Source: Myxococcota bacterium | Lineage (GTDB): Bacteria; Myxococcota_A; UBA796; CAJQPC01 | Assembly: GCA_036012755.1 (NCBI GenBank) | Contig: DASCPX010000125.1 | Location: forward strand, 1-32,753 | DNA length: 32,753 bases | Direction: 5' to 3' | Shown: positions 2,582-31,292 of the stretch, piece by piece | How positions within the stretch are numbered: position 1 is the stretch's first letter | How the letters are laid out: each line of letters starts with the position of its first letter | Notes under the pieces: generated by a model | Told to the model about the DNA's origin: nothing | What the model saw: the letters and a program-made list of their open reading frames with translations, nothing else | Databases searched by the model: none | Translations under genes and position numbers: made by a program

Positions 2582-3403
2582 TCAGAGCCACCCCTCGAGC
2601 GCTTCCGCCAGGCGAGCGTTTCCCTCGACAGTGAGGTGGATCGGGTCCTCCTCGAAGAAGAGCCCGTGGTCCAGCTCCGGGGCGAAGAGCGGGATGCCCT
2701 CTGCGTCGGCGAGCTCCTCCAGTACGGCGAGGTGTTCGTTGGCCTGCTCGACCATCGGGAAGGCGAACAAGAGCGGCTCGGCTCCGGCGCTCCGGACTTG
2801 CTCGATCAGGGCAACGAGGTTGGCCCGGTAGCGCTCCGGTGGAACGCGATGCACGGCCGGACCGTCTCGGGGCCCAGGGGCTGGCCGGAGACTACGTATG
2901 GTCCGCAACAGCGCCAGGTTCGAGGGCGCCGAAACCGATGGGCGCTCGTGGTCCGCCATCGGCGCGAGCTCGGCGTCGCGGACGAGGAAGGCCAGCAGCA
3001 CCTGGGATGGCTCGGTCGACATCGCCTCGTCGATGCGCGCGAGCCCCTGGAAGGTGGAGTAGCCGGGCACCCCGCCGTTGACCGCGCCGTCCACCAGGGC
3101 GGGCCAGGCCTCGTCCTCCTCGACGCCCCAGCCAAAGGTCGTCGAGTCGCCCAGGCACAGGAGCGCTCCTGGCTGGGGCTCGTCACCCCGCCACCCGAGC
3201 GCGTTGGTACGAACGCCGAACTCGGTTCCCCGCTCCACGAAGCGCACCGGGCGCTGGATGTCGGGCCGCAGACGCCAGATGGGCGTGTGCTCGTCGATGT
3301 AGAGCGAGGGCTCGCTCACGAGGCGCAAAAACAGCTCGGCGCCGCCGAGGACCACGACTGCCATGATGGCGCTGAAGCCGAGGTTCCGGAGGACCCGCTT
3401 CAT
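2582..3403 (-). CDS. SGNH/GDSL-family hydrolase with an N-terminal membrane anchor
   Basis: Block I LCLGDSTTFG, block II VNGGVPGYST, block V DPIH. Block III reads LVRD instead of G.ND. ATGA overlap with the upstream gene. Confidence 0.88.
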   Translation of the reverse strand: MKRVLRNLGFSAIMAVVVLGGAELFLRLVSEPSLYIDEHTPIWRLRPDIQRPVRFVERGTEFGVRTNALGWRGDEPQPGALLCLGDSTTFGWGVEEDEAWPALVDGAVNGGVPGYSTFQGLARIDEAMSTEPSQVLLAFLVRDAELAPMADHERPSVSAPSNLALLRTIRSLRPAPGPRDGPAVHRVPPERYRANLVALIEQVRSAGAEPLLFAFPMVEQANEHLAVLEELADAEGIPLFAPELDHGLFFEEDPIHLTVEGNARLAEALEGWL

Positions 3404-4722
3404 CCGGGATTGGCGAGCCGAGCGTAGTAGACCTCATTGCTGCCCCGGACGCCCTGGTTCCAGACGACGTGGAAGTCCCCGTCCGAGGACGCGGAGATCG
3501 ACGGCAGGCCAGGCTTTCCCTTGCCGATGGTGGCGACGCGGCGGGGCTTGGACCAGCCCGTGCCCGTGTCGACAGCGTAGACGAGCTCCGCCTGCTCACC
3601 GCTGTCCCAGCCCCAGACCAGCACGCGATCACCATCCGCGTTGATCTCGATGTCGGGGTCGAAGTGGTAGCCGCCGTAGCCCGCGCTGGGCTCCACCGCC
3701 TCACCCCATGCACCGGGGTGGCCGGAGCGCACGTAGACCGCCACGGGTCCGGTGGCCGGTTCCTTGTGGAACCAGGTCACATGGTCCAGCTCGGCGAAGG
3801 CGAAGTGGGGCCGCTCGCCCTTTGGACCGCTGGCGCTGAGGTTCTCTGGCTCTCCCCACTTCCCGTCACGACCCTCGACCACGTACAGCGTCGTCGGGGT
3901 GCCCCCCGTGCCGATGTCCCAACCCGCGAGGACCGACCCGTCCGGGCGGCGCTCGACGTTCGAGTGCCAGGCGTCCTGCTCGCCGTCAGACAACAACAGC
4001 GGCGCGCTCCAGCTCTCGCCATCGAAGATGCGACCAGTCGCCTTGAAGCGGTCGTCGGGGCTCATCTTCTTTCCGATCCAGACGTAGTACAGCGCACCTC
4101 CGAGCCCATGAGCGATGTGGCCGCTGCCGATCTCGCCTGCGGGGTCGTCAGCCGTGAGCGGCTCGGGTTCGCTCCAGCTCTCCCCGTCCCAGATGGTGAG
4201 CCAGCCCCGGCTGTGGAAGTCCTCTGCGGCGTGGTCCCAGCAGAGCACGACGCTGCCGTCGTCTCGCGCCACGATGTCCGGCCCCCAGTTCCGAAGCTCG
4301 TCGAAGCCCACGTGCACCGGGTCGGTCCACGTCGCGCCGTCAGCGCTTCGCCGGTGGCGGATGAGATCTCCCTCGTCGGCCCGCTCGTAGAAGACCGCGT
4401 GCACCTCATCCCCCGCGCCGACCGTGACCTGGGGCCTGTAGCCACCGCCAGGATCGGCGGACAGTCGGAGAGGCTGTGACCACTCGCCAGTCCCGTCGAC
4501 CCGTGGCCCCTGCGGGGCCGGGCGGTCGTGGAAGCCCGGGAAGCCGGAGGGGTCCTGCAGGCCGGCACCCGAGCCCCCGTCGACTGGCGGAGCGGGACCT
4601 CCCGGGGGCGGGTTTGGCGGCATCTGGCCGTTGGGTGGCCCGGGATGGGTCTGTGGGGTCGACGGCGCTTCAGCTGCTGGCTCCCCCTGGGGGCTGCAGG
4701 CGAGCCACAAGAGCATGCTCAT
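3400..4722 (-). CDS. Lipoprotein with a Pro-rich N-terminus and a BNR/Asp-box-like beta-propeller
   Basis: Lipobox MSMLLWLAC. Repeated blade motifs RSADGATW, WDGESWS, FDGESWS, DGKWGEP, TGTGWSKP. Confidence 0.75.
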   Translation of the reverse strand: MSMLLWLACSPQGEPAAEAPSTPQTHPGPPNGQMPPNPPPGGPAPPVDGGSGAGLQDPSGFPGFHDRPAPQGPRVDGTGEWSQPLRLSADPGGGYRPQVTVGAGDEVHAVFYERADEGDLIRHRRSADGATWTDPVHVGFDELRNWGPDIVARDDGSVVLCWDHAAEDFHSRGWLTIWDGESWSEPEPLTADDPAGEIGSGHIAHGLGGALYYVWIGKKMSPDDRFKATGRIFDGESWSAPLLLSDGEQDAWHSNVERRPDGSVLAGWDIGTGGTPTTLYVVEGRDGKWGEPENLSASGPKGERPHFAFAELDHVTWFHKEPATGPVAVYVRSGHPGAWGEAVEPSAGYGGYHFDPDIEINADGDRVLVWGWDSGEQAELVYAVDTGTGWSKPRRVATIGKGKPGLPSISASSDGDFHVVWNQGVRGSNEVYYARLANPG

Positions 4723-4728
4723 GGCGGG

Positions 4729-4738
4729 AGTATATGCT
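4729..4738. promoter_or_regulatory. Overlapping opposite -10 boxes (putative bidirectional leaderless promoter)
   Basis: Minus-strand TATACT (4734-4729) is 6 nt before ATG 4722. Plus-strand TATGCT (4733-4738) is 7 nt before GTG 4746. Confidence 0.6.
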
Positions 4739-4745
4739 CGCTACC

Positions 4746-6197
4746 GTGCTCGCCATCGCCATCGCCATCGCCTGCTCGAGGGCTCCCGAGCCCACAGCGC
4801 TCGACGGTCAGGACCCGGGCGCACGGCACCACGACCCTGTCGCCCAGGACCAGCAGCACCCACCCATCCCGGCTCACGACCCCATCTGGGAGTGGGACGC
4901 CGGCGGCTTCGTCGGTCACTCCCAGTGGTACGGCGAGCACTCGTGGACCGACGTGAGGATGCGCGTGGCGGGGCACATGACCATCGCCGGACGTGATCTG
5001 GCCCGCATCCAGGCATCCCGGGGAGACCTCGAGGGCGCGGCCGCGACGTGGCACGCGCTCCACACCGATCTGATGGCTCTCGACATCCCCGACGAGGGCG
5101 TGGCCGGCCAGCTGGTCGCGGTCGTCCGAGCCCACGCACAGCGCGAAGCCGAGCTGCTCGACGCCCTCGCCGCGGGGAGCGCCCTGCCGACGCGAACCCC
5201 CGGCACCCTCGGCGCGGCCCGGGTGGCGGTGCTCGGGCTCTCGGCCAACCCCGATCCGCAGCAAGCGAAGGCGGCGCAGGCTGACCTCGAGGAGCTGCTC
5301 GATGAGCGCCCGGACCTGGACCTCGACGCCTTCGAGGACTTCGACGCGCGCCACGAGCTCCGAGTCCGGCTCTACGAGGCGGCGTTGGACTCCGGCGACC
5401 CCCTCGGCCTCGAGGAGCCCTGGGGCTACTGGGAAGCCTCGGAGCTGCGGAGGCAAGCGCTGATACTCGGCTACGTCGCCGGGCGACTCGGCGGGGACGA
5501 CTGGAGCTCGCGCGTCGCCGAGTTGGACGGGACCCCGCCAGAGCTCGACGGCGATCCGCTGCGCTGGCCCTCCCTCGTGGCGGACGCCCTCCGGACGAGC
5601 TCCGAGACCTTCACGCCCGACGGCCTCGGCTGGCTGCCGACCGGGGACTCGCTCATCGACATCGGCGCCCAGCCAGGCCCGCGCGCCATCGGAACGCTCT
5701 CGAAGCTGGGCCTGGACGACGAGGCCCACGTCTCCTGGCTCCAGGCCGAGGCCGATGCGCTCAACCTGCTCCTGGCAGACGACATCGACGCCGTGCCCGG
5801 CCGCATACGGCAGACCACCGCGGCGCTGGACGCGCACGAGCACGGGAGCCGGTACTACAACGTCAAGCAGGCTCGGAACGAAGCTGTCCGCCAGCTCGCC
5901 CGCAACGGACGTCCGGACCTCGCGCTGGAGGTCCTCTCCGGCAACTACCCGCTGCACAACCAGGACTGGGCCTGTCCGAACCGGGAGGGCATCCTCCAGG
6001 CCCTCGAAGGCCGCCTGCTGGCCGAGGCAGGTCGGCTGGACGAGGCGGAGGCGAAGCTCTCCGAGTCACTCCAGACCTCCCGCGACTTCGTCAACCTGGT
6101 GGACCAGGCTGCTGCGGCTCCCCCGGGAGGGGGCCCGGGGGCGTCTCCCCCGGTACCCGACCAGGGCCCTCCCAAAGGACCTCCTCCACGCAGATGA
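4746..6197 (+). CDS. Hypothetical alpha-helical lipoprotein (TPR-like C-terminal region, Pro/Gly-rich tail)
   Basis: Start GTG 4746 (MLAIAIAIAC) or ATG 4734. High-GC3 codon pattern and amphipathic helices. No family recognised. Confidence 0.75.
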   Translation: MLAIAIAIACSRAPEPTALDGQDPGARHHDPVAQDQQHPPIPAHDPIWEWDAGGFVGHSQWYGEHSWTDVRMRVAGHMTIAGRDLARIQASRGDLEGAAATWHALHTDLMALDIPDEGVAGQLVAVVRAHAQREAELLDALAAGSALPTRTPGTLGAARVAVLGLSANPDPQQAKAAQADLEELLDERPDLDLDAFEDFDARHELRVRLYEAALDSGDPLGLEEPWGYWEASELRRQALILGYVAGRLGGDDWSSRVAELDGTPPELDGDPLRWPSLVADALRTSSETFTPDGLGWLPTGDSLIDIGAQPGPRAIGTLSKLGLDDEAHVSWLQAEADALNLLLADDIDAVPGRIRQTTAALDAHEHGSRYYNVKQARNEAVRQLARNGRPDLALEVLSGNYPLHNQDWACPNREGILQALEGRLLAEAGRLDEAEAKLSESLQTSRDFVNLVDQAAAAPPGGGPGASPPVPDQGPPKGPPPRR

Positions 6198-6945
6198 GCA
6201 AGGCGCCGCCTGCCTCGTCGAGGTGCAACACCGGGCTCGTGCAGGTCCTGATGGCCCCCTCGGAGAGGATGCGCTGGAAGTCGCTCCAAGTGCCATCGAC
6301 AAGGCGCGCGAGGTAGGGGACGCGGTCACCGGCGGGGCCCTGGGCGACCAGCCAGAGCTCATCGTCGACGACGAGCGCATAGGGCACGGCGAAGCCCTCG
6401 AAGGTGCGCTCCTTCACAGGGGGATCACCCACGTAGAGCTCTACGTTGCCTCGAGCGGTCACGAAGAGGTGGTGCTCCCCTTGGAACTCGACCGCCGACG
6501 GATCCGCAAACCCCATGCCCGAGAGCCAGACCCTCGGCGGCGGCGAGGAGCGGATCTCCGTGGGGTTGTTGGCCGGGTCCCCGGTGACCCCGCTCCGCGA
6601 CGTGAAGTACAGGACGTCCCCTAGGAACTGGGGGTCGATGAAGTTCACCACATCCTCGTCATCGACGCTCCACGCCCCGGGCGACCAGGTCTCGCCATCT
6701 CCCTCGTAGCCGCGGACGCGCAACGGCACGTAGCGCTCCCAAGCCGGAATCCGACGCTGATGGTCGAGGCCGACGAGCCGGAGCGTGCCGTCGTGCTCGG
6801 AGAGCCCGAGCGTGTCGAAACCTACGAAGAGGGCGCCCTCGTCCATTGCCCAGGTCTCCAGATCAGCTGAGCGCCAGACCCGCACGGAGGATCCGTCCAA
6901 GAGCCCGGGCTGGGGCGAGCTACACGCCAGCCAGATCGCGAGCAC
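6091..6945 (-). CDS. Hypothetical lipoprotein, probable beta-propeller (glycosidase-like fold)
   Basis: Start re-assigned to GTG 6945 (MLAIWLACSS), overlapping the upstream gene end by 26 bp. Blade-like motifs WRSADLETW, FIDPQ, FADPS, CTSPV. Confidence 0.65.
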   Translation of the reverse strand: MLAIWLACSSPQPGLLDGSSVRVWRSADLETWAMDEGALFVGFDTLGLSEHDGTLRLVGLDHQRRIPAWERYVPLRVRGYEGDGETWSPGAWSVDDEDVVNFIDPQFLGDVLYFTSRSGVTGDPANNPTEIRSSPPPRVWLSGMGFADPSAVEFQGEHHLFVTARGNVELYVGDPPVKERTFEGFAVPYALVVDDELWLVAQGPAGDRVPYLARLVDGTWSDFQRILSEGAIRTCTSPVLHLDEAGGALLICVEEVLWEGPGRVPGETPPGPLPGEPQQPGPPG

Positions 6946-7798
6946 AGCGGAATCCACTGGTCTTCCGGCGCAGCTCCGCGAGGAAACGGTGGCGCTCGGA
7001 GCCCGGGTTTCGGGCGAGGTCGAAGTAGTAGCTGCCACCACGCACGGCGACGTAGAGGCCAGGTCCGGCGGTGCCACGCAGCGCGGCGTCCTCCACCCGC
7101 CAGTCCGAGGTCAGCTCCCAGGCGTTGCCGAAGGTGTCGTCGAGCCCGAACATGGAGCGGCCTTCCGGGTACGAGCCGACCGGCGAAAGCCAGAGGTGGC
7201 CGTCGCTGTCGTCCACGTTGGGGGTCTCGAACTTGCCGTGGTTGAGCTTGCTCCCGTCGTAGCTGTCTCCCCACGGCCAGGCGTGGCCGGCCCTGTCTGG
7301 TCCAAGGGCCGCGAGCTGCCACTCGGCTTCGGTCGGCAAGCGCTTGCCTGCCCAGGTGCAGTAGGCGCGGGCGTCGTACCAGTTCACCAGGACCACCGGG
7401 AGATCCTCGTCACCGACACCCTCCCAGTTCCAGTCGTCGGCCCACTCCTCGTCGACGTGCGGCGGCCGGTAGCCGCTGTCCTCGAGGAACTTGCCATAGT
7501 CGCCCCGCGTCACCTCGGTCCGGTCGATCTCGAAGGTCTCCACGGCCACGGCGGTGAGCGCCATCTGCTGGCCGTCGACGAGCTCCCAAGGCGCCCAGGG
7601 GCCCGTCCGCTGGCGAGTCGCCGTCTTCATCTCGGGAGGCGGACCCGGGCCGTTGGCGGGCGCCTTGGCCCCGTGGAGTGCGCCCTTCGGCATGGTCGAG
7701 CCGACGCGGACCATGCCATCGGGGATCCTGACCATCTCGGAGAGATCCTCCGGCTCTGGAGCCCTGGCGCAGGCCAGGATCAGAACTGCAGCCGACAC
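6920..7798 (-). CDS. FGE-sulfatase-domain (SUMF1/PvdO-like) lipoprotein
   Basis: FEIDRTEVT, PVVLVNWYDARAYCTWAGKRLPTEAEWQLAA, PVGSYP, GLDDTFGNAWE, RGGS, GFRC. Lipobox MSAAVLILAC. The catalytic Cys pair of true FGE is absent. Confidence 0.92.
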   Translation of the reverse strand: MSAAVLILACARAPEPEDLSEMVRIPDGMVRVGSTMPKGALHGAKAPANGPGPPPEMKTATRQRTGPWAPWELVDGQQMALTAVAVETFEIDRTEVTRGDYGKFLEDSGYRPPHVDEEWADDWNWEGVGDEDLPVVLVNWYDARAYCTWAGKRLPTEAEWQLAALGPDRAGHAWPWGDSYDGSKLNHGKFETPNVDDSDGHLWLSPVGSYPEGRSMFGLDDTFGNAWELTSDWRVEDAALRGTAGPGLYVAVRGGSYYFDLARNPGSERHRFLAELRRKTSGFRCARDLAGV

Positions 7799-9078
7799 TC
7801 GAGCACCGCGCGATGTTCGATGGCGAGGTCCACGTCATCCGGCACGACGACCTCGTAGCCCAGGTTCGTCGACACGCCGCTGTCGGACCAGGCTGTGTCG
7901 ATCGCCAGGGCGGCCCCTGTGTGGTGATCGACCGGTGTGTCCTGATCGGGATCGAACCAGGACACGCGGACGACAGGGGTGACGCGGCTCGCGGCCCCGC
8001 CCGTCTCGAAGTCCCGCGCGAGGTGGCCAGCCGCCCCCAGGCTCGTCGGGCCGAGGCCCTGGCGGCCGTAGACCTCGACCAGCGCCCGGTTGGGCCCGGC
8101 GTGCACAAAGGCGACGCCCTCGTAGCCGACCTTCGTGGCGCCTCCCGTGCCCGGTCCAGCCAGCACAGAGGCCGAGACGGTGAGTGCCTCGATCGGTGTG
8201 ACCGCGACGCGCAGGCTCAGGTCCTTGGGGATCTCGACCTCGGGTTCGCTGGAGTTCGTGAGGTTGACATCCAGACGGACCATCTCGCCCAGCCCACCGT
8301 TCCATCCGAGGCCCAGGGAGCGCTGAGGGAGGAGCCCTTCGCCGACCACGACCGGGAGGTAGAGGGCCGGGCCGGGCAAGGGAAAGCCGCCACCTTCGTA
8401 GGAGTCGACGACCCCGAATGGGAGCCGGGCGTTCCCGAGGGTGAAGGTGCCACCGCGGGGCGTCGCGTAGGCGAGGTGGGCGTCGAGGAGCTCGGCAGAC
8501 CAGCCGCTCGGCGCCGCAGGCACGGCCACGGAGGCACCGTCGCTGGTGTCGAGGCTCGTCGAGGTCTGGTCCTGCGCGAGCTGAAGCTCGATGCGGGCGG
8601 AGGCGCGCTGTCCGAAGTCGTGGTCGACCGACAGCCGCGCGACGGGGATCACGAAGGCGAGGCTCGGGTCCTCGGCGACCTCGGGGTGGAGGTTGTCGAG
8701 CCGGTCTGCGAACAGATCGACGCGCAGATCCCCACCGATCCTGGTGTCGCCCAGGCCTGCGACGACCTCGCGAACGACGACGACATCAGGCGGGTCAGGT
8801 GGCTCCGGCGGACTCACCTCGGCCGGCTCCGGCGGCTCCGGCGGCTCCGGTGGGCTCACCTCGGCGGGCTCCGTTGGACTTGCCGCGGGCTCATCGGTGA
8901 CGACCTTGGCCTCCTTCGCCTCCATCTCAGCCAGCCGCGCCTCGGCGTCGGCGAGTCGAATGAGGGCCTCTGCAATCCGGATCTTCTCTTCGATCTGCTG
9001 GAGCTCGGAGGGCTCCTCTTCAGAGGAGGTCTCGGGGTCCTCCGCCAGCGCGAGCCCACTCAGAACCAACCAGCTCAT
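7780..9078 (-). CDS. Outer-membrane porin (OprO/P-like beta-barrel) with an N-terminal coiled-coil and Pro-rich linker
   Basis: GGAGG before ATG 9078; short signal MSWLVLSGLALA; porin-like ARL..., LLDAHLAY, LGNARLPFG segments; alternating beta-strands; C-terminal Phe. Confidence 0.7.
   Translation of the reverse strand: MSWLVLSGLALAEDPETSSEEEPSELQQIEEKIRIAEALIRLADAEARLAEMEAKEAKVVTDEPAASPTEPAEVSPPEPPEPPEPAEVSPPEPPDPPDVVVVREVVAGLGDTRIGGDLRVDLFADRLDNLHPEVAEDPSLAFVIPVARLSVDHDFGQRASARIELQLAQDQTSTSLDTSDGASVAVPAAPSGWSAELLDAHLAYATPRGGTFTLGNARLPFGVVDSYEGGGFPLPGPALYLPVVVGEGLLPQRSLGLGWNGGLGEMVRLDVNLTNSSEPEVEIPKDLSLRVAVTPIEALTVSASVLAGPGTGGATKVGYEGVAFVHAGPNRALVEVYGRQGLGPTSLGAAGHLARDFETGGAASRVTPVVRVSWFDPDQDTPVDHHTGAALAIDTAWSDSGVSTNLGYEVVVPDDVDLAIEHRAVLECRLQF
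8801..8872. repeat. Intragenic duplication encoding EPAEVSPPEP twice (42-bp period), with 9-bp GGCTCCGGC repeats
   Basis: Near-identical 30-bp copies at 8801-8830 and 8843-8872 within the porin linker. Confidence 0.8.
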
Positions 9079-14544: not shown

Positions 14545-15252
14545 GTGCTCCTGCTCATGCTGGCCTGCGGCGAAGACCGCCCTCCCGGGCAGGATCGAGT
14601 CGACTTCGTGGCCGCCCTCCAGTTGGCCGAGGACCACCCGAACAAAGCCGCCGCGCTCTGCCACGAGATCGAGGACGGCCCGCTGAGGGCCGACTGCGCC
14701 TGGGCTGTCGTGCCCCACCTCGAGGGCGAGGAGGCCGCGGCACTCTGCGTCTCCTTGCCGGACACCGCCCTCGGCCACGAGTGCTGGTTCCTCCTCGGCG
14801 AGTCCGGCGATCCCAGCGCCTGCGCGAACGCTGGACCCATGGCCGACGACTGCCGGATCCACGTCTTCAGCCAGCGCATCTGGAGCCACTTCGACTCTGA
14901 TGTCAGGCCCGGCGAGGCCGAGGAGGAGGTGCTCCTCCACGTCGTGGGGGTCGGCTTCGCTCCCAGCGACGTGAGACCCTGGTCGGCGTGGTTCCGTCAG
15001 CTCTTCACCAGAGGCGTCCTGGACCCGACGACCTGTCTCGCCGTCGAGGACCTCGACCGGCGCGAGGTCTGCGCCCGTACGGTGTTGCCCGTCTTCCACG
15101 ACCGCCTGAACCACGGGCGCGACACCGAGGAGGGACTCTGCGAGGAGGACCCCGCCTGGGCGGTCCTCGACGAACCCCTACGCCTCGTATTGGAAGAGCG
15201 CCGCGCCGAGGACCTCTGCGATCCGACGAAGAAGCAGGCACCTCCAGGATGA
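14545..15252 (+). CDS. Cys-rich hypothetical lipoprotein
   Basis: Lipobox MLLLMLAC; regularly spaced Cys pairs in helical repeats. Confidence 0.8.
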   Translation: MLLLMLACGEDRPPGQDRVDFVAALQLAEDHPNKAAALCHEIEDGPLRADCAWAVVPHLEGEEAAALCVSLPDTALGHECWFLLGESGDPSACANAGPMADDCRIHVFSQRIWSHFDSDVRPGEAEEEVLLHVVGVGFAPSDVRPWSAWFRQLFTRGVLDPTTCLAVEDLDRREVCARTVLPVFHDRLNHGRDTEEGLCEEDPAWAVLDEPLRLVLEERRAEDLCDPTKKQAPPG

Positions 15253-16031
15253 TCTGGCTCTTGTCCTGCGCCCCTGTTCCGGACGCCGAGCTCTATGTCA
15301 CGGCGCTGGACCCCGAGATCCCGATCGCAGAGGCGCTGTCGGCCTGCGCCGCGATGTCCGAGCGCTCCGACGAGTGCGCCACCGCGGTGGTCGCCCAGCG
15401 GGACGGGGATCCCGCCATCTGTCAGAGCCTGGCCTCCGAGTGGGGGGAAGAGTGCCACTTCCGGGTCGCCGAGCGACTCATGGCCCAGGGCGAGCGCTGG
15501 GAGGCCCTGGTCGAGTGCGGCCTGTCGAGGCGGTACTACGACGAGTGTCTCTACCACCTCTGGAGCCGGGAGCTGCAGACGGCCGTCGAGCCCGACTCCG
15601 CTGAGATCTCCCGTGCGGTGGACCACGAGGCCGCCGGCGGAGAGGTCGTGGACTACTTCTCCGGCCTGCGCACGATCCGGCAGGACCCGGAGGAGCTCCT
15701 CTGGGCGGACTTCTGGTACTTCGCCCACACGCGGAATCGCCCCGCGCGGCTCGAGGACTGCACCGACAGCGTCGATCCCGACCGCTGTGTTCGCGGAACG
15801 CAGGTCTACGTGGAGCGCCTCGTGACGGAGAGCCTGACCCGCGCCACGACCGATCCGGCGGTCAGAGACAGGGCCTGCCGCTCCGGCGAGCTGCCCGACG
15901 CGATCGGGGAGGGAGCGTGGATCGCCGACGGACTCCTCGAGGCCCCGGCCATCGCCGGCCTCGCCAACGCTTGCCAGACCCCGATACGGCGCCCGTGGAG
16001 CCCGAGCTTCATGCCGATGAGGCCGCTGTGA
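15249..16031 (+). CDS. Cys-rich hypothetical lipoprotein, probable paralog of the upstream gene
   Basis: Start re-assigned to ATG 15249 (ATGA overlap). MIWLLSC; shares Cys spacing and EC.F...E and DxC..H motifs with 14545-15252. Confidence 0.8.
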   Translation: MIWLLSCAPVPDAELYVTALDPEIPIAEALSACAAMSERSDECATAVVAQRDGDPAICQSLASEWGEECHFRVAERLMAQGERWEALVECGLSRRYYDECLYHLWSRELQTAVEPDSAEISRAVDHEAAGGEVVDYFSGLRTIRQDPEELLWADFWYFAHTRNRPARLEDCTDSVDPDRCVRGTQVYVERLVTESLTRATTDPAVRDRACRSGELPDAIGEGAWIADGLLEAPAIAGLANACQTPIRRPWSPSFMPMRPL

Positions 16032-19886: not shown

Positions 19887-22880
19887 ATGGCGCTCAAGAT
19901 CTCATGTCCGCACTGCGGGAGTCCCCACCGCCTGAGGGAGCCCTTCCCGGACCCGGGCGCTGAGGTGCAGTGCGACTCCTGCGGCGCGACGCTCGCCATC
20001 ACCTACCCCGTGGGACTCGTCGATCGGCTGCGGTCCAAGGGTGCGCGCTTCCAGGGTGACCCGGAGCCCGTCCTCACTCCCGCCCCCACTCCTCGACCAG
20101 AGCATCTCCGACGCCTCGAGCGCCCCGAGCTCGGACAGGTCTTCCAACCCCAGGAGACCGGTCCGACCCAGGTGCTGAGCCAGTCCCCGAGTCCGCAGCC
20201 GCAAGAGACCGGGCCCACGATGCTGCTCGGCCCCGGCGATGCCCCGCCACCCGTCACCGCGCCGCCGAGCGCGCGGGGCGAGCAGGCGCCAGCCGACGAG
20301 GAGCGCACCATCCTCGCGCGGCAGAAGGCGCGCCCCCACGACCCGACCGACCCGATCGACCGGACGGGAGAGCTCTACGACTCTCTCGAGGGGCAGCCCG
20401 AGCCGCTCTCGCCCGGACCGCGGGGACCAGCCCCGCGCCTCATGGAGATCCCGCATCAGAGGAAGCCGTGGGGCTGGGGCAAGCGCCTGGTCGTCGGCTT
20501 CGTCGCGATGTGCGTCATCGGAGTGGCCACGTTCGCCGGTTCCTGGGCGTACTTCAGCCAGGATCTGCCTACGTTGGAGACCCTCGAGACCTACCGGCCG
20601 CCCACGGTCACGGTCGTCTACGACAACCAGGGCCAGCTCCTCGGCGAGATCTACGAGCAGCGCCGCTACGTCGTGCCCCTCGAGACGATGCCGGAGCACC
20701 TCCGACACGCCTTCATGGCCTCCGAGGATGCGAACTTCGAGCACCACAAGGGCGTCGACCCGATGGGCATCCTCAGGGCGATGGTCAAGAACGTCCAAGA
20801 ACGCGGCATGGCCCAGGGTGCCTCGACGATCACGCAGCAGGTAGCCCGGAACTTCCTGCTCACGAGCGAGAAGAAGCTCACCCGCAAGATCAAGGAGGCC
20901 ATCCTCGCCACGCGGATCGAGGAGGCCTTCGACAAGGACCGCATCCTCTATCTCTACCTGAACCAGATCTACCTGGGGTCCGGGGCCTACGGGGTCGAGG
21001 CTGCCTCCCGGATCTACTTCGACAAGCACGTCAGTGACATCAGCCTGGCCGAGGCTGCGCTGCTCGCCGGCCTCCCCCAGCGGCCCTCCGACTACAGCCC
21101 CCATCGCAACTGGGACAAGGCGCGGGCGCGCCAGGAGTACGTGCTCGGCCAGATGCTGGACAAGGACTTCATCACCCAGGCGGAGCACGACGCGGCCGTC
21201 GACGAGGAGATCCGCATCGTCAAGACGGAGAACCCCATCCGCCTGTTGGCCCCCTACTACACCGAGCACGTGCGGCGACACCTCGTCGAGACCTACGGCT
21301 TCGACCGGGTCTACAACGAGGGCCTCATCGTTCACACGACCTGCGACCTGGAGCTTCAGCAGATCGCCCAGAACGCCGTCACCAGGGGCATCACCGAGCG
21401 CAACATGGCCCTGGGATGGCGAGGGCCGCTGGAGACCCACGAGGGCGAGGCAGCGATCTCGGCGAGACTGCAGGCGCAAGAGCAGTCGATGCGCGAGCAC
21501 GACCAGTTCCTCGCGGACAACGCGCGGCGCAACCCGCTCCCGGAGCTCAGCTCCCTGCGCGCGGGCGAGCGCTTCGAGGCCGTGGTCACGGCGGTGGAGA
21601 AGAAACACGCCGTCGTCGGCATCGGCGCCCACGAGGCGATCGTGCCGCTGTCCTGGACCTACTGGGGCTTCGAGCCGAACATCAAGAAGTCCTGGCGCTA
21701 TCGCAAGAACAACGACCTGACGACGACCCTCTCCGTCGGAGACGTGGTCACGGTCGAGGTCGTCGCGGTCGACTCCCAGACGGAGAAGAACCTCGAGGGC
21801 TACGAGGCCGCCGTGGGGCTCGCAGCGGCGAAGCTCTACCAGAAGCCCGAGCTGCAGGGCGCGCTGTTGTCCTACGACCTCGACACCGGCGCCGTCCGCG
21901 CCATGGTCGGTGGGGTCGACATCGAGGAGAGCGAGTTCAACCGCGCCCTCCAGGCACGGCGCCAGGTCGGCTCCACCTTCAAGCCGATCGTCTACGCGAC
22001 CGCGCTCGACGAGCGCAAGTTCACGACGGGCTCGATGGTGCCGGACACCCCCAAGACCTTCTTCGACTACAACGAGGAGAAGATCTGGAAGCCCGGGAAC
22101 TACGGCGGCGACTACCTCGGCAACATCTCGCTGCGGAAGGCCCTGGCGCTCTCACGAAACGTCTGCACCGTGCACGTGCTCGACGTCGTCGGCATGGACC
22201 CGGTCTACGACATGGGCCGCACCCTGGGCATCGAGAGCCACCTGGAGAAGGACCTGTCGATGGGGCTGGGCACCTCGAGCCTGTCGATGATCGAGATGGC
22301 CCGCGCCTACTCGGTCTTCGCGACCTACGGCAGCATGGTGGACCCCTACTTCATCGAGTCGGTCGAGGACCGCGACGGCGTGGTGCTCGAGCAGCACGAG
22401 CTCGTCGATCATCCAGAGGTGCTGGACCCGACGGTCGCAGGGATCACCACCTGGCTCCTGCGCGAGGTCGCCACCGCCGGCACGGGCGCGGCCACGAACC
22501 GCCTGGGCGTGCACATCGCTGGAAAGACGGGGACGACGAACGACTTCAAGGACGGCTGGTTCGTCGGCTTCACGCCGGGGGTCATCACCGCCGCCTGGGC
22601 CGGCTACGACAAGCCACGCAGCATGGGCGTGAGCAGCACCGGGGGGCGCATCGCCCTGCCGATGTGGATGGAGTACATGGAAGCTGCCTGGCCCAAGGAA
22701 GTGGACCGCCCCTTCCCCGAGATCCCGGACGCCGTCTGGGCGTCCATCGACGAGTCGAGCGGCAAGGTGCGCTCCGGTGGGCGTGGCATGCCCTTCATCC
22801 CGGGCACGGTCCCGGAGAGGAGCGGCGCAGCGGCTGGACAGGTCACCACGGAGGAGTTCATGACCGGGGGTCTGTTCTGA
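19887..22880 (+). CDS. mrcA: Class A penicillin-binding protein 1A with an N-terminal Zn ribbon and Pro/Thr-rich cytoplasmic extension
   Basis: Glycosyltransferase motifs EDANFEHHKGVD, GASTITQQ, RKIKE; transpeptidase motifs GSTFK, SRN, KTG; OB/S1-like insert; N-terminal CPHC...CDSC; single TM helix. Confidence 0.93.
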   Translation: MALKISCPHCGSPHRLREPFPDPGAEVQCDSCGATLAITYPVGLVDRLRSKGARFQGDPEPVLTPAPTPRPEHLRRLERPELGQVFQPQETGPTQVLSQSPSPQPQETGPTMLLGPGDAPPPVTAPPSARGEQAPADEERTILARQKARPHDPTDPIDRTGELYDSLEGQPEPLSPGPRGPAPRLMEIPHQRKPWGWGKRLVVGFVAMCVIGVATFAGSWAYFSQDLPTLETLETYRPPTVTVVYDNQGQLLGEIYEQRRYVVPLETMPEHLRHAFMASEDANFEHHKGVDPMGILRAMVKNVQERGMAQGASTITQQVARNFLLTSEKKLTRKIKEAILATRIEEAFDKDRILYLYLNQIYLGSGAYGVEAASRIYFDKHVSDISLAEAALLAGLPQRPSDYSPHRNWDKARARQEYVLGQMLDKDFITQAEHDAAVDEEIRIVKTENPIRLLAPYYTEHVRRHLVETYGFDRVYNEGLIVHTTCDLELQQIAQNAVTRGITERNMALGWRGPLETHEGEAAISARLQAQEQSMREHDQFLADNARRNPLPELSSLRAGERFEAVVTAVEKKHAVVGIGAHEAIVPLSWTYWGFEPNIKKSWRYRKNNDLTTTLSVGDVVTVEVVAVDSQTEKNLEGYEAAVGLAAAKLYQKPELQGALLSYDLDTGAVRAMVGGVDIEESEFNRALQARRQVGSTFKPIVYATALDERKFTTGSMVPDTPKTFFDYNEEKIWKPGNYGGDYLGNISLRKALALSRNVCTVHVLDVVGMDPVYDMGRTLGIESHLEKDLSMGLGTSSLSMIEMARAYSVFATYGSMVDPYFIESVEDRDGVVLEQHELVDHPEVLDPTVAGITTWLLREVATAGTGAATNRLGVHIAGKTGTTNDFKDGWFVGFTPGVITAAWAGYDKPRSMGVSSTGGRIALPMWMEYMEAAWPKEVDRPFPEIPDAVWASIDESSGKVRSGGRGMPFIPGTVPERSGAAAGQVTTEEFMTGGLF

Positions 22881-23335
22881 TGATCCTGTCGCTCTTGCTG
22901 TCATGCGTAGAGGCCGTCACGGTCGAGGTGCCCGTCTGCGAGGTCTCGCTCACGTCGCTCTCCCCCGCCGCGGCGGGTGTGGGGGACGAGGTCGTCCTGT
23001 CCGCGAGCCCCCTGTCAGAGGCCTGGGACACGGTGATCCTGGTCGGCGGCGTGCGCGCCGAGCTCAGCGGTCTCACGCGAGACGACTGCGACAGCTGCGA
23101 TGCCTGTCGGGAAGACAACGAGTGCAGCGACTGCTTCTCCGACTGCGACGCCTGCGACGCGCAGTGCGCTGCCGACTGCGTCGAGACCGCCACCTTCGTG
23201 GTCCCCGAGCTGCTGCCGGGGCTGACCACGGTGGAGCTCTTCAACACCCATGGGGGCAGCGAACGGATCGCATTCGAGGTGCTCGGAACAAGCGACACCG
23301 GCGCCGGCGGGGACTCCGCGGACACAGGCGGCTGA
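22880..23335 (+). CDS. IPT/TIG-like lipoprotein with an acidic Cys-rich insertion
   Basis: ATG 22880 overlaps the PBP1A stop by 1 nt. MILSLLLSC; IPT-like LSPAAAGVGDEVVL...VGG...FVVPELLPG...VELFNTHGGS; 9-Cys insert. Confidence 0.82.
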   Translation: MILSLLLSCVEAVTVEVPVCEVSLTSLSPAAAGVGDEVVLSASPLSEAWDTVILVGGVRAELSGLTRDDCDSCDACREDNECSDCFSDCDACDAQCAADCVETATFVVPELLPGLTTVELFNTHGGSERIAFEVLGTSDTGAGGDSADTGG

Positions 23336-23401: not shown

Positions 23402-24007
23402 ATGATCCTGCTAGCAACCGTCCTGTCGACGAACGCCGAGGCCGGCGGCATCGGCATCATCACCACCGCCGGTACGCACCAGGACCGCTTCTACGCCTAC
23501 GACCTGTCGGACGCGCAGTACGTGATCTCCGCGCAGCGCCCGGACTACGGGTTCGGCTTGCAAGCCGTGCTGGGCGACCGTGACGACAAGTGGGTCGGCA
23601 CCGCGCGCCTCTGGGCGCAACAGGACGCCGCCCAGTCGGACGTCGGCCACAACGCCAAGGCCCGCGAGGAGGGCTGGAAGCCGACGACCGAAGAGGGCCT
23701 CGACAACGAGCTCACCTACGTCTTCCGGGACGAGCCGCGGACCCTCGGGCTCGCATCCGCGGGTGTCCAGTGGCGCCTCTGGGGCGAGCCCCTGGGCTTG
23801 CAGCTGTCGCTGATCACGAACGTCGGCACCGGCTTCCTCACCGTCGACTCCAGCGAGTTCCTGCTGGCGCAGATCGGCCCGGGTGTGCACTACACGATCA
23901 ACGACCGCATCCAGGTCAACGCCGAGTTCGGCTACGAGATGCGCTATCGGAAGAGCTTCTACCACGGCTCGACCTTCAACCTCGGCGTCCGGTACCTCAT
24001 CGATTGA
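23402..24007 (+). CDS. Small outer-membrane beta-barrel protein
   Basis: Start ATG 23402 (GAGG upstream). Signal MILLATVLSTNAEA; amphipathic strands (IGPGVHY, VNAEFGYEMRY, FNLGVRYLID). Confidence 0.75.
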   Translation: MILLATVLSTNAEAGGIGIITTAGTHQDRFYAYDLSDAQYVISAQRPDYGFGLQAVLGDRDDKWVGTARLWAQQDAAQSDVGHNAKAREEGWKPTTEEGLDNELTYVFRDEPRTLGLASAGVQWRLWGEPLGLQLSLITNVGTGFLTVDSSEFLLAQIGPGVHYTINDRIQVNAEFGYEMRYRKSFYHGSTFNLGVRYLID

Positions 24008-25872
24008 TAGCGCTCGCCGCTGCCCTCGGTGCCTGCTCCACGGCGCGAACGACCCCGGAGTGGCTGGAGCAGCGAGAACCCGGGGGACCCTGCTACGAGG
24101 CAAACCTGCTCGACGGACTCTCGGAGGAGAGCACCGACGAGCTGCACGCGGTCTTCGACTGCCTGAACCGACAGGACGCCTTCGAGCCCTTCTCGGGTGT
24201 GGTCGACAGCCTCGACACCGAGGCACGAGACGGAGACCCCGCCGGCGTCGAGCTCGCCAGGGCGACGAACCAGGCTGGTGACGCCGACATCGATGTCTTC
24301 GGAGTGGCGACCGTCCTGCTGGACGCCGCCCGCTCGGGCGAGCTGACCTACTGGTCCGAGGTGGTGGTGGAGGTGCTCTACGGGACCTCCTACGAGCGCG
24401 TCGAGAGCGAGGTCGATCTGCGCGCAGGATCCTCGCTGGATCGCGGCCTCGTGCGGCCCCTGCTCCCGGCCCTGCGCTTCTCCGCCGAGGCCATCGTAGA
24501 CAACGACCTCGAGCCCACCACGGTGCTCGGCGAGGCGCTGGTCAGCGAACACGTCGCATCGGCGACCGAGCGCTTCGCGGAGCTCGCGGAGGCAGGGCTG
24601 TTCGACGACGTGCCCGCGGACCTGGGTGACGCCATCGAGCGCAGCCGGAGCACCGACAACGACCGCTGGGACGAGGCCTCCGGCGACTCGATCCGGGACA
24701 TCTCCGAGAAGCTCTTCCTCGAGACCGGCAACGACGGGCGCATCGCCATCGAGCACATCGCCGACCCCGCGCGGGTGGTGCTGGCCGACGACCAGGTCCG
24801 CGATGGCCTGCGGCAGACGCTGATCGAGCTCGACGACGGCGGTCACCTCCGCGCCCTGCCACCGCAGCTCGTCTACCTCGCCGAGGTCGACCCCGACGGA
24901 GCGGCGCTCGAGGCCGGCGAGGACTCGGCGTTGGTCGCCCTGTTGCGCCTGCTCCAGCGCGGGAACGGGCCGATGGAGTGCTCGCTGGATCTCTGGGTGG
25001 CTTCGCTGGACGTGAAGATCGACAACTTCTCCGTCGAGTTCCTCTCCCGCCTCGCCCAGCAGGACCCGGGCGCCGTAGAGAGTGGCGTCTCCATCCTCGG
25101 TGATCTCTTGGGCTGGCCCTTCAGCAGAGAGATCCTCTACGCCATCGCCGACTCGGGTCTCTGCAACCCCCTCGACCGCCAGATGGTCGACGACGTACAG
25201 GCCATCGACCGCTTCAACGACCCCGCAACGAGCGACCTGCTCAGAGCGCTGTTGTGGACGCTGGAGGACTTCTACGCGGTCGACGACTCGAAGATCCCCG
25301 AGCTCGTCGACCTGCTCGCGACCGTCCGGAACTTCGACGCCGACAGGCCGCTGGAGGAGCTGCTCCGAGACATCGGCACCAGCGCGCTCGTCTACGACTT
25401 CGTGGACGTGCTCGCCGAGCTGCGCGCTGACTTCGATCCGCTCTGGGACGCAGCGGAAGCCGCCTTCGCGATCCGCTCCTCCGGTCGCTCGGGAGTGGAG
25501 GAGCTCAGCCCGACGATCCAGGCCGCCTTCGTCCAGGAGGGCACCTGGACGACACTCGGAAACACCGCCACGCTGCTCCAGCGCGGGGACGCCCGCTCCA
25601 CGGAGCTCCTCGCTCGTCTCCCGGGGCTGCTCCAAGAGGACCTGCCCTTGCTCACCGGCCTCGGCGAGGCCCTACAGGACGAAGGGCTGGTGCGCCCGAT
25701 CCTGCTCGTGGTCGAGACGGAGGAGGTGCACACCGCCATGGCGCAGGCCGAGATCACCGTAGAAGGTCCCCTCCCCTTCCTCGCGCGGTTGGTGGTGGGC
25801 GGCACCCTGACGGAGGCCCTGGCGCTGCTCGAGTGGGGCTTGGATCTCCTCGAAGGTGAAGAAGAGCGATAG
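24004..25872 (+). CDS. Large acidic alpha-helical hypothetical lipoprotein
   Basis: Start re-assigned to TTG 24004 (TTGA overlap). Lipobox MIALAAALGAC; Leu/Asp/Glu-rich helices. Confidence 0.75.
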   Translation: MIALAAALGACSTARTTPEWLEQREPGGPCYEANLLDGLSEESTDELHAVFDCLNRQDAFEPFSGVVDSLDTEARDGDPAGVELARATNQAGDADIDVFGVATVLLDAARSGELTYWSEVVVEVLYGTSYERVESEVDLRAGSSLDRGLVRPLLPALRFSAEAIVDNDLEPTTVLGEALVSEHVASATERFAELAEAGLFDDVPADLGDAIERSRSTDNDRWDEASGDSIRDISEKLFLETGNDGRIAIEHIADPARVVLADDQVRDGLRQTLIELDDGGHLRALPPQLVYLAEVDPDGAALEAGEDSALVALLRLLQRGNGPMECSLDLWVASLDVKIDNFSVEFLSRLAQQDPGAVESGVSILGDLLGWPFSREILYAIADSGLCNPLDRQMVDDVQAIDRFNDPATSDLLRALLWTLEDFYAVDDSKIPELVDLLATVRNFDADRPLEELLRDIGTSALVYDFVDVLAELRADFDPLWDAAEAAFAIRSSGRSGVEELSPTIQAAFVQEGTWTTLGNTATLLQRGDARSTELLARLPGLLQEDLPLLTGLGEALQDEGLVRPILLVVETEEVHTAMAQAEITVEGPLPFLARLVVGGTLTEALALLEWGLDLLEGEEER

Positions 25873-27626: not shown

Positions 27627-27632
27627 CCGGGG

Positions 27633-28838: not shown

Positions 28839-28844
28839 GCCCGG

Positions 28845-28850: not shown

Positions 28851-28968
28851 ACGGACGCCCCCTGCGATATCAAACGGGGCCAGGCCTCGACCATCACTTC
28901 GCCGGACCGCCCGGTGATGGGCCGCCGGGTCGAAGAGGCGCCCGGACCGGGGCTAAGATGGAGCCTGC

Positions 28969-30816
28969 TTGAAGCAGCCCGGCGACGTCATCGGCAGATT
29001 CCAGGTGGAGCGACTCCTCGGAGAGGGGGGCATCGCCCAGGTGTATGCCGTGCGCCACCGCCAACTGGGCACCTTGCACGCGCTGAAGCTGCTGACGATC
29101 CAGCGAGGAGGTCTGGCCGCGCGGCTCTTGCAGGAGGGGCGAATCCAGGCCCAACTCCGCCACCCCCATGTCGTCGCCGTCACGGATGTCGTCGAGCACG
29201 AAGGCCAGATCGGGCTCGTCATGGAGTACATCCAGGGCTTCAGCCTCGACGCCTGCCTGAAGGAGGGTGGCGCGATGCCGGCGGTGGACGCGCTGGAGCT
29301 CTTCGGCCAGGTCACCGCGGGTGTCGGCGCAGCACACGAAGCCGGGGTCCTCCACCGTGATTTGAAGCCCGGCAACATCCTGCTCACGACCGTGGGGAAC
29401 AAGGTCATCGCCAAGGTCGCGGACTTCGGCATCGCGAAGATCGCCACGGAGGGCATGCAGCGCGACGCGATGACGATGAGCGGCACGGCGATGGGCACCC
29501 CCGGGTACATGGCGCCCGAACAGATCACCGACTCGGCGACCGTCGACGCACGCGCCGACATCTTCGCCCTGGGCACCATCCTGTACGAGATGCTCAGCGG
29601 GACCCGGGCCTTTGGTCGCGGCGACGTGCTGGGGATCATGAACCGCACGGCGGCGGGTGACTACACCCCCTTGGCGGCGATGCTGCCGAGCCTCCCGGCG
29701 AGGATCTCGGCGGCCGTCGACGTGGCGCTGTCGGCCCATCCCTCGCAGCGCTTCTCGACCTGTAGTGCCTTCGCGGAGGCTCTCGGCGTCGATATCCAAG
29801 CAGCCGAGCCGGCGCTGTTGACCCAGCTCCCCAGCATCCCGCCCACGGAGGCACCCAACCCGACGCTGATGCCCTCGCCGACGGAAGCGCCGCGCGAGGA
29901 TCCCTACCGCGACACGTGGTTTCCAGAGGAACTCCCGCAGGGCGACCTGGTGGCCCCGTCCTCGACGCCGCCGCCCCCGATGACGGCCCCACCGCCTACG
30001 CCGCACGCGGACCTTCACACACCCGTCGGCACCATCGACCCGGAGGTGCCCACCGAGCTCGCGACGGACCCGCCGACCGAAGAGGAGCTCAACTCCCGCT
30101 TCGGGCTGGACGACGAAGGCGTCCAGATCGACGGAGCCCTGCCCCCGCACCGCTTCCAGCGCGCGAAGCCACCTCCGCCGTCCAACCCGACTCCGCTTCC
30201 AGCAGAGCAGACGGAGGAGCGCGACGTCCCCGAACACGAGCGGCCCGGGATGCACGTCGACGCCGGCGAGGCCGGTCAGCTGGTCTACGAGCTGGTCTGG
30301 CCGCTGCTCAGGGCGCTCTACAACACCGGCCGCTACCTCGCCTTCCCGGTGATCGGCGTCCTGGTGGCTGGCCTGCTCACGGCCCAGATGGGCCAGTCGG
30401 AGCTCGCCGACATCCAGGCCGAGGTCGAGATCAGCGCGACGCAGCTCTCCCACGCAATCGAGGGCACGATGCCGCTCTACAGCGAGCTCCTCACGATGGG
30501 GGCGAGAGAGCCCGTGCTGACCCCCTTCCTCGACCGCTACCAGCGCGGCGAGGACGAACTGACGCGCTACGGCGCAGCACTGGATCTCTGTGACGCGATG
30601 CTGCAGGAGCTCCGCGTGCTGCCCACGATGGAGGACACCGCTCAGATCCAGCGCCGCCGCGAGGTCGAGGTGCAGCTGAACCACATGCGCTCGCAGTACG
30701 AAGCATGGAGTCAGAACCTGGCCGCGTGGCAGGACTCAGCCGGCGGCATGAAGGGCACGCTCGCGATCCGCACCGGCCTGGCGACCGCCCCTCCCGGTTG
30801 GGAGGATCCGAGCTAG
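28969..30816 (+). CDS. Hanks-type Ser/Thr protein kinase with a Pro-rich linker, TM helix and extracytoplasmic helical domain
   Basis: GEGGIAQV, ALK, HRDLKPGN, DFG, GTPGYMAPEQ, DIFALG; TM segment YLAFPVIGVLVAGLL. Confidence 0.93.
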   Translation: MKQPGDVIGRFQVERLLGEGGIAQVYAVRHRQLGTLHALKLLTIQRGGLAARLLQEGRIQAQLRHPHVVAVTDVVEHEGQIGLVMEYIQGFSLDACLKEGGAMPAVDALELFGQVTAGVGAAHEAGVLHRDLKPGNILLTTVGNKVIAKVADFGIAKIATEGMQRDAMTMSGTAMGTPGYMAPEQITDSATVDARADIFALGTILYEMLSGTRAFGRGDVLGIMNRTAAGDYTPLAAMLPSLPARISAAVDVALSAHPSQRFSTCSAFAEALGVDIQAAEPALLTQLPSIPPTEAPNPTLMPSPTEAPREDPYRDTWFPEELPQGDLVAPSSTPPPPMTAPPPTPHADLHTPVGTIDPEVPTELATDPPTEEELNSRFGLDDEGVQIDGALPPHRFQRAKPPPPSNPTPLPAEQTEERDVPEHERPGMHVDAGEAGQLVYELVWPLLRALYNTGRYLAFPVIGVLVAGLLTAQMGQSELADIQAEVEISATQLSHAIEGTMPLYSELLTMGAREPVLTPFLDRYQRGEDELTRYGAALDLCDAMLQELRVLPTMEDTAQIQRRREVEVQLNHMRSQYEAWSQNLAAWQDSAGGMKGTLAIRTGLATAPPGWEDPS

Positions 30817-31292
30817 CAGTTGTCGTCGCCGACGATGCTGAGCTCGAAGACCTCGGACTTGTTGCCCGCGGAGTCCTTGACCGTGGTCGACACCTCGTAG
30901 TCGTCGTTGTCGATGTCGAAGCCGAGGTAGAGGTCGCCGATGTCGCAGCCGCGATCCTCCTCGTCGAGGATCCGAGCGTCGTTGGAGCCTATGTCCCAGG
31001 TCTGCCCGTCGCCCAGGCCCTCGAACTCGACCCAGACCCGACCGCCGTCGAGGTCATCGTTGCGGTCCCGGTACTCGTAGCAGAGGTTCAAGAGGCAGCC
31101 CGTCTGGGAGTTCGGCAGGTCCTCGTAGGCGTAGGCCACCTCGTCGATGACCGGAGTGTCGTCAGGCGGGTCGTCGTTGGTCCCGGTGTCCCCGGTCTCG
31201 TCCGGGTTGTCCCGGTTCGCGCTGTTCCCTCCGCCATAGAAGCCAGGGTCCCCGAGTTCACATGCGAACAGTGCGAGGGCGAGTGCGGTCAT
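30813..31292 (-). CDS. Small acidic hypothetical lipoprotein (Ig-like)
   Basis: Start re-assigned to ATG 31292 (GGAGG 6 nt upstream, TACACT further upstream). MTALALALFAC; DTG-rich linker; DSAGNKS motif typical of Ig-like domain ends. Confidence 0.78.
   Translation of the reverse strand: MTALALALFACELGDPGFYGGGNSANRDNPDETGDTGTNDDPPDDTPVIDEVAYAYEDLPNSQTGCLLNLCYEYRDRNDDLDGGRVWVEFEGLGDGQTWDIGSNDARILDEEDRGCDIGDLYLGFDIDNDDYEVSTTVKDSAGNKSEVFELSIVGDDNC

Follow-up and report, generated by a model that had tools for sequence, protein, structure and literature searches.

Ultrashort, uncharged N-termini in an uncultured marine myxobacterium are probably genuine Sec-type lipoprotein signal peptides

A 32,753-nucleotide stretch of DNA from an uncultured marine myxobacterium (contig DASCPX010000125.1 of assembly GCA_036012755.1, here called the window) raises the question whether N-termini of only 7 to 11 residues up to and including a cysteine, and bearing no basic residue, can act as lipoprotein signal peptides, as is predicted for ten genes encoded there. 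The window represents one contig (C125) of a 6.73-Mb, 250-contig genome with a G+C content of 68%. In the usual lipoprotein signal, for which a PROSITE rule exists, the cysteine is located at about residue 15 to 35. As the norm for bacterial signal peptides in general, excerpts of PMC9360617 describe a positively charged n-region followed by a hydrophobic h-region. From the evidence presented here, the short N-termini are probably genuine Sec-type signal peptides of the lipoprotein kind, processed by signal peptidase II (SPase II), and constitute a local sample of a property that extends over the whole genome.

In a preliminary description of this DNA, the ten N-termini had been listed with cysteine at positions 7–11 and without preceding Lys or Arg, and all of them read exactly so in the sequence. 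Moreover, each fits the lipobox pattern with Ala, Gly or Ser at position −1, a hydrophobic residue at −3 and cysteine at +1. The anchoring of start codons claimed in the same description was found as well. At 4722 (−), 7798 (−) and 14545 (+), an in-frame stop is located 6, 12 and 11 codons upstream, respectively, and the intervening codons include neither ATG nor GTG nor TTG, while the starts at 15249, 16028, 22880 and 24004 overlap the stop codon of the preceding gene and GGAGGA is present upstream of the ATG at 31292. Nearby alternative starts, 4–11 codons upstream, exist in three of the ten genes, where they add neither Lys or Arg nor a normal h-region. For the gene starting at 4746 (+), an ATG at 4734, four codons upstream, gives MLATVLAIAIAIAC with the cysteine at residue 14, both starts being uncharged. 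For the gene at 6945 (−), a GTG four codons upstream adds VDSA with one Asp, and for the gene at 16028 (+), a GTG 11 codons upstream adds acidic and polar residues only. Public protein collections hold the exact proteins of the four ATG-start genes and of two neighboring genes with signal peptidase I (SPase I)-type N-termini, i.e., all six that were looked up; hence, other gene callers picked identical starts.

Genome-wide, a lipobox-like cysteine near the start was found in 1,050 of 5,663 genes, called at 90% coding density with a home-made procedure based on codon log-odds, so that these counts are approximate. The N-termini were sorted into 256 canonical-possible, 483 anchored-short and 311 ambiguous cases, where anchored-short means that the cysteine remains at position 12 or below even with the farthest possible in-frame ATG, GTG or TTG. 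The anchored-short class thus accounts for 46% and has its modal cysteine position at 8; in 233 of its genes, fewer than 10 open codons are present upstream. A lipobox motif 5–9 residues past the called start occurs in 639 genes, while the internal rate (425 motifs in 1,680,059 residues) predicts about 7 per such bin, corresponding to a roughly 90-fold enrichment at gene starts. N-terminal enrichment of the lipobox therefore exceeds chance. The pattern also emerges without being imposed. When counting the first cysteine, with no lipobox constraint, in the 2,855 genes in which the best start coincides with the earliest possible one, a peak at residues 7–12 is obtained (92, 171, 112, 91, 51 and 45 genes, respectively), against about 15–30 genes at other positions. 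In the 585 N-termini of this unconstrained set having the first cysteine at residues 6–12, Ala, Gly or Ser is found at −1 in 77%, Leu at −2 in 53% and Leu at −3 in 47%, a pattern absent from the control set with the first cysteine at residues 30–36. Lys or Arg precedes the cysteine in only 14 of the 483 anchored-short N-termini, and at the positions left unconstrained by the filter Arg makes up 13 of 492 residues. Accordingly, the genome-wide tabulation of first-cysteine position and charge that had been proposed for this DNA does reveal a distinct short and uncharged class.

Several lines of evidence bear on the validity of these starts. A Shine-Dalgarno (SD)-like motif precedes 44.7% of the 483 short starts and 42.7% of 1,797 unambiguous other starts, compared to 20.6% of 2,270 internal in-frame start codons, and the SD peak is at −11 to −9 in short and other starts alike. 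The in-frame codon score upstream is non-coding in both sets (−0.41 for short and −0.34 for other starts). The short-signal starts are real starts, and the possibility named beforehand, that the true ones lie further upstream, was not borne out for the 483 genes. Expansion of a single paralog family was likewise considered and rejected, as similarity clustering of the 483 proteins results in 341 clusters with 304 singletons.

The same genome encodes 99 strictly canonical lipoprotein signals, some of the Tat type. Compared to these, the h-region of the short signals is richer in leucine (56 versus 41%), whereas the part following the cysteine is in both groups a linker rich in Pro, Asp and Glu. 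Several of the canonical signals bear twin-arginine motifs, for example, MKRRDFFKMVGVTGAAGLTAC. Lipobox-type N-termini as a whole make up an unusually large share of the genes, with 1,050 of 5,663 here, 69 of 323 in another member of the same order (G059) and 34 of 304 in a Myxococcota genome from outside it (G303).

Orthologs allow for following the cysteine through relatives, which was done for two of the window lipoproteins. Orthologs of the 622-aa protein occur in 116 of the 151 genomes of the order. All 30 loci read have kept the cysteine, while the signal in front of it ranges between 8 uncharged residues and about 25 residues with Arg. Similarly, the cysteine of the 151-aa protein is retained in all 13 orthologs with N-terminal coverage. 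A lack of conservation, which would have spoken against lipidation, was not found for these two proteins. Alternation of short and canonical signals at one and the same cysteine favors a single shared pathway. The trait is, judging from the predicted N-termini, also one of SPase I substrates. The proteins encoded at 7780..9078 (−), a putative beta-barrel, and 23402..24007 (+) do have the short uncharged signals previously ascribed to them. For the latter, a beta-barrel-like protein of 201 aa, orthologs share the A|GG(I/V)G junction. The signal in front of it has 13–14 uncharged residues here and in genome G073, whereas G105 (of the same genus), genus g4 and family f7 have Arg-containing signals of 23–26 residues. 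Beyond the window, TonB-dependent receptors, OmpA-family proteins and efflux outer-membrane proteins show 9–13-residue uncharged signals of the SPase I type. As these proteins are obligately exported, the trait concerns Sec signals generally and not lipoproteins alone. Thus, the ten N-termini are probably those of lipoproteins, with the cysteine kept in orthologs of the two proteins followed, while the restriction to lipoproteins implied by the preliminary description does not. BamD (YfiO) usually occurs as a lipoprotein. The homolog encoded on contig C149 of the genome studied here (G000; 39926–40537, −) starts with MFALLLTLSLPAVAAKNQ and has no cysteine within its first 50 residues, so that its N-terminus looks SPase I-type or uncleaved.

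According to the favored interpretation, a short signal would consist of Met1 and about four to seven Leu-rich residues running into an (L)-(L/x)-(A/G/S)-Cys lipobox, with no basic n-region. The inner membrane would be crossed by means of the ordinary SecA/SecYEG system, the cysteine would be diacylglycerylated by Lgt, and cleavage by LspA and N-acylation by Lnt would follow. High leucine content would offset the short length, and the free alpha-amino group of Met1 would be the sole positive charge possible. Residue 2 of the short signals is usually bulky, suggesting that Met1 probably stays on these proteins.

For the distribution across genomes, a DNA proxy was counted, ATG-(NTN)4-GSN-TGY, which stands for Met, four hydrophobic residues, Ala or Gly, and Cys. 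It occurs 50 times in the genome of the window, 48 times at gene starts, with only 0–4 hits in scrambled controls. Among 151 genomes of one uncultured Myxococcota order, at least 15 hits were obtained in 19, belonging to parts of three families: f1 (50, 47 and 20 in the genus of the window and 34 in genus g2), f6 (19 and 20 in genus g30) and f7 (13 genomes, up to 54). The remaining genomes of the order have values of 0–13 (reversed-pattern control 0–3), and in genus g15 of family f7 values of 3–12 and 32–42 occur side by side. A survey of 301 genomes from the phylum included 257 from outside the order, and their values were 12 at most. In line with this, applying the identical pipeline to 400 kb of G059, a member of the order with a proxy value of 0, gave 69 lipobox genes (43 canonical-possible, 9 anchored-short and 17 ambiguous), and 400 kb of G303 gave 34 (30, 1 and 3, respectively). 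The anchored-short share consequently amounts to 46% (483 of 1,050) in the genome studied here, 13% (9 of 69) in G059 and 3% (1 of 34) in G303. Judged by the proxy, minimal signals are lineage-restricted and strong only in some lineages of a single order.

In the f7 genomes G112, G117 and G133, all 30 proxy sites that were inspected open reading frames of at least 155 codons, and at 18 of the 30 no upstream start is available. An SD-like motif precedes only 2 of these 30 starts, versus the 44.7% in the genome of the window, and translation initiation signals may thus differ between f7 and the family of the window. On the contigs around secY of high-proxy f7 genomes, 139 kb yielded only 6 lipobox genes because housekeeping genes abound there, so that this sample says little about the trait. 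Judging by their titles, the closest public records listed are metagenome-assembled genomes (MAGs) throughout. In the literature surveyed, with subscription journals being outside its scope, no account was found of Sec or lipoprotein signals that are both ultrashort and uncharged, whether from Myxococcota or from other organisms.

The enzymes for export and lipidation were then examined for peculiarities. Two LspA, five Lgt, one Lnt, one SecY, one SecA, one Ffh and three S26 peptidases are encoded, and the matches of Lgt, LspA and Lnt are all above the family cut-offs. Lgt, LspA, Lnt, SecA, SecY, Ffh and LepB are all encoded and look ordinary. The two LspA paralogs can be aligned to solved LspA structures, with the GN..DR and FN.AD motifs retained in each. 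In both, owing to an insertion, the stretch separating the two catalytic-Asp motifs is about 12 residues longer than in the solved chains. A tandem lspA-lspA-lgt-lgt cluster is located outside the window on contig C59 of the same genome (G000; 100000–102591), and the same arrangement occurs in relatives, for example, on G073:C47, G105:C761, G039:C93 and G093:C154. Multiple Lsp homologs are also reported for Myxococcaceae in excerpts of PMC13616975. Across the 151 genomes, LspA copy numbers range from 1 to 3 and those of Lgt in most cases from 2 to 9, neither tracking the proxy. Seven high-proxy f7 genomes have a single LspA (G108, G112, G115, G119, G125, G131 and G133), and G059, with a proxy of 0, has two LspA and six Lgt. 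Duplication of LspA or Lgt as cause of the trait was therefore rejected. Within genus g15, four genomes with proxy values of 32–42 have one LspA and eight with values of 3–12 have two, a relation seen nowhere else in the order.

SecY of the genome is conventional as a whole, with an E value of 5e-132 to E. coli SecY chains. At the residue aligned with E. coli Ile187, however, all 50 SecY sequences from the order have a small residue (Ala in 24, Ser in 26), compared to Ile in 35, Met in 4 and Val in 1 of 40 Myxococcota from outside the order, four of which belong to the same class but to different orders, and to Ile in all 31 Geobacter-type sequences. Only one other alignment column is fully disjoint between order and outside. 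It is aligned with Ala79, three residues before the pore-ring Ile82, and is occupied by Val or Phe in the order and by Ala, Thr or Ser outside. Family f7 in addition shows Ala at the Phe286-aligned position in 16 of 18 sequences. According to excerpts of the respective papers, Ile187 is a member of the SecY isoleucine pore ring (PMC2171872), Phe286 is the second site of prlA4 (PMC3164448), and prl alleles permit the passage of proteins whose signals are defective (PMC2171872, PMC3164448). The order thus resembles prlA alleles of SecY/Sec61 in having a substitution at a pore-ring position and, in f7, also at the prlA4 site, as far as these excerpts describe the alleles. It differs in that the change is natural, order-wide and paired with a small-to-large replacement three residues from Ile82. 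A prl allele at Ile187 itself was not found in the excerpts consulted.

Of the machinery that had been proposed for inspection, SecY does bear an unusual, order-specific substitution in the pore ring, the only change detected in the machinery, whereas the motifs of LspA are intact. It is conceivable, though rather less than probable, that order-wide remodeling of the SecY pore lowers the threshold for signal recognition in the way prl mutations do and so permits the minimal signals. Equally tentative is the evolutionary extension of this idea, in which one order would possess a naturally prl-like Sec channel and its signals would have been pared down by evolution to a minimal core. That core would comprise Met1, with its alpha-amino group replacing the n-region, about five leucines and the cleavage or lipobox motif, and the channel would be characterized by the small residue at the Ile187 site and the paired change one turn from Ile82, with f7 adding Ala at a lateral-gate site of the Phe286 type. 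The Ile187-site substitution follows the order (anchored-short shares of 13–46% inside versus 3% outside) and not the differences within it. Hence, the change in SecY may be permissive at most and would not suffice for short signals, since it is also carried by low-trait members of the order and by a Nitrospirota MAG.

A number of points weigh against the favored interpretation. In E. coli, the combination of short and uncharged is the worst for a signal, and functioning through an unmodified pathway is for this reason not self-evident; high leucine content can offset both short length and absent charge in E. coli signals. The lipobox filter used here is home-made and bars charged residues from the six positions preceding the cysteine, and Lys or Arg is found before the cysteine in 93 of the 585 unfiltered N-termini. 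Compensation by charge balance was rejected, as the mature N-termini are equally acidic, with −2.14 per 15 residues after short and −2.18 after canonical signals. As to SecY, the pore change is also present in genomes of the order with proxy values of 0–5, and a value at background level (3 versus 1 in the control) was obtained for the Nitrospirota MAG, in which Ser occupies this site. Among the 50 sequences available for the comparison within the order (8 from high-, 26 from low- and 16 from intermediate-proxy genomes), no SecY column splits high from low genomes across lineages, and a substitution tracking the trait was not identified, the differing columns being markers of family f7. In addition, the substitution is a single phylogenetic event, and the paired change at the Ala79 position may simply restore packing.

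These points lead to the most serious competing explanation, namely a pathway without any modification. Leu-rich mini-signals would then be acceptable to every Sec/Lgt/LspA system, with drift or mutation bias setting their distribution and the SecY changes being mere clade markers. The missing correlation of the trait with any SecY column inside the order is in agreement with this, as are its independence of LspA and Lgt copy numbers, the same SecY residues in members of the order having few 7-residue signals and the background proxy of the Nitrospirota MAG. The higher leucine content of the short signals fits as well, since leucine can compensate for other defects. We nevertheless regard this explanation as unlikely. 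Proxy values do not exceed 12 in the 257 out-of-order Myxococcota, while they reach 15–54 in 19 of 151 genomes inside, and even the low-trait member G059 has an anchored-short share of 9 of 69, compared to 1 of 34 out of the order. The contrast indicates some permissiveness at the level of the order, and of the only two fully order-diagnostic SecY columns, one coincides with a pore-ring residue and the other is three residues away from one.

At the other extreme, a dedicated and so far undescribed system for export and lipidation apart from Sec/Lgt/LspA would account for signals departing from the positively charged norm, and the five Lgt and two LspA paralogs with their lspA-lspA-lgt-lgt cluster could be taken as its components. 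Paralog numbers, however, are an order-wide feature without link to the trait, seven high-trait f7 genomes manage with one LspA, proteins of the SPase I type carry the same short signals, and the same cysteine is preceded by a short signal in some orthologs and by a canonical one in others. Candidate machinery was not seen either, albeit without a genome-wide presence/absence screen, so that a separate system appears quite improbable. Of the proposals made for this DNA, a separate non-canonical route hence finds no sign, with ordinary enzymes encoded and LspA and Lgt copies not following the trait. The idea of a modified Sec/Lgt/LspA pathway survives in part, in that minimal signals are evidently genuine and lineage-restricted and accompanied by an order-specific SecY change, while LspA and Lgt copy numbers lend it no support. 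There is similarly little chance that the N-termini are uncleaved membrane stubs or belong to cytoplasmic proteins. Cleavage is predicted from sequence, and 5–7 hydrophobic residues are too few for a bilayer-spanning helix, which leaves some room for such a reading. Against it stand the lipobox pattern arising without being imposed, the cysteine being invariant in orthologs with canonical lipoprotein signals, the extracytoplasmic nature of the families concerned and the Pro-, Asp- and Glu-rich linker past the cysteine, which resembles that of the canonical lipoproteins here. Least credible of all is an annotation artefact with true starts upstream. While three of the ten window genes do have an alternative start 4–11 codons upstream, none of these alternatives supplies an n/h-region that is basic or hydrophobic, 233 genes have fewer than 10 codons between the start and an upstream in-frame stop, and the SD and coding-potential profiles match those of real starts.

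Genuine short Sec-type signals being the preferred explanation, they can be placed among known systems. Like the Lpp-type Sec/SPase II signals of E. coli, they have a hydrophobic N-terminus, a lipobox and an invariant cysteine orthologous to that of the canonical signals of relatives, and Lgt, LspA and Lnt are encoded. Unlike them, they lack a basic n-region and have a total length of only 7–12 residues, and with Leu at −2 in 53% the h-region and lipobox merge. The leaders of type IV prepilins are also very short and N-terminal. These leaders, however, are basic and have a terminal Gly, and prepilin peptidase cuts them ahead of the hydrophobic segment, whereas in the signals described here the hydrophobic segment precedes the cut and ends in the lipobox cysteine. 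The short signals are probably of the Sec/SPase II kind, albeit far outside its canonical parameter range.

Table 1. Window genes with short, uncharged predicted signals.
Position	Strand	Length (aa)	Type	N-terminus	Start codon	Remarks
3400..4722	−	440	lipoprotein	MSMLLWLAC (Cys9)	ATG	Pro-rich linker; no Pfam match; exact protein public
4746..6197	+	483	lipoprotein	(V/M)LAIAIAIAC (Cys10)	GTG	weak TPR_4 match only
6091..6945	−	284	lipoprotein	(V/M)LAIWLAC (Cys8)	GTG	no Pfam match
6920..7798	−	292	lipoprotein	(V/M)SAAVLILAC (Cys10)	GTG	FGE-sulfatase domain (PF03781, E 9.5e-43)
7780..9078	−	432	SPase I	MSWLVLSGLALA		no Pfam match; exact protein public
14545..15252	+	235	lipoprotein	(V/M)LLLMLAC (Cys8)	GTG	no Pfam match
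15249..16031	+	260	lipoprotein	MIWLLSC (Cys7)	ATG	ATG overlaps previous stop; exact protein public
16028..16909	+	293	lipoprotein	(V/M)TLLLLAC (Cys8)	GTG	GTG overlaps previous stop
22880..23335	+	151	lipoprotein	MILSLLLSC (Cys9)	ATG	overlaps previous stop; exact protein public
23402..24007	+	201	SPase I	MILLATVLSTNAEA, mature start GGIG		outer-membrane beta-barrel-like; exact protein public
24004..25872	+	622	lipoprotein	(L/M)IALAAALGAC (Cys11)	TTG	TTG overlaps previous stop
30813..31292	−	159	lipoprotein	MTALALALFAC (Cys11)	ATG	GGAGGA upstream; exact protein public

Among the ten lipoprotein genes of the window (Table 1), a clear Pfam family is assigned only to the one with the FGE-sulfatase domain. 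The gene at 6091..6945 (−) was missed by the crude gene caller owing to overlap with a neighboring call. For the 432-aa SPase I-type protein, the best start is the first possible one, and the 201-aa protein shows a weak OMP_b-brl match below the cut-off (E 0.0011). Between 14545 and 16909 (+), three short-signal lipoprotein genes without Pfam family follow each other with stop/start overlaps, apparently forming one operon.

A textbook signal combines a basic n-region with a hydrophobic core of sufficient length to reach the lateral gate of Sec and engage it. In the genome studied here and in several related lineages, 7–12 uncharged residues seem to be enough for hundreds of proteins of diverse kinds. 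If this is true, a new natural lower bound would be set for Sec and SPase II signals, compact tags for secretion and lipidation would be on offer, and rule-based annotation of environmental genomes may miss part of the lipoproteins and other exported proteins. Should the channel indeed be prl-like, much of the envelope proteome would be hidden from rule-based prediction. As the substitution affects a pore-ring site of the prl class throughout the order, the link between pore composition and signal stringency is directly testable in E. coli. The order would then represent a natural experiment on translocon proofreading, with an order-wide change at the class of site where prl suppressors map.

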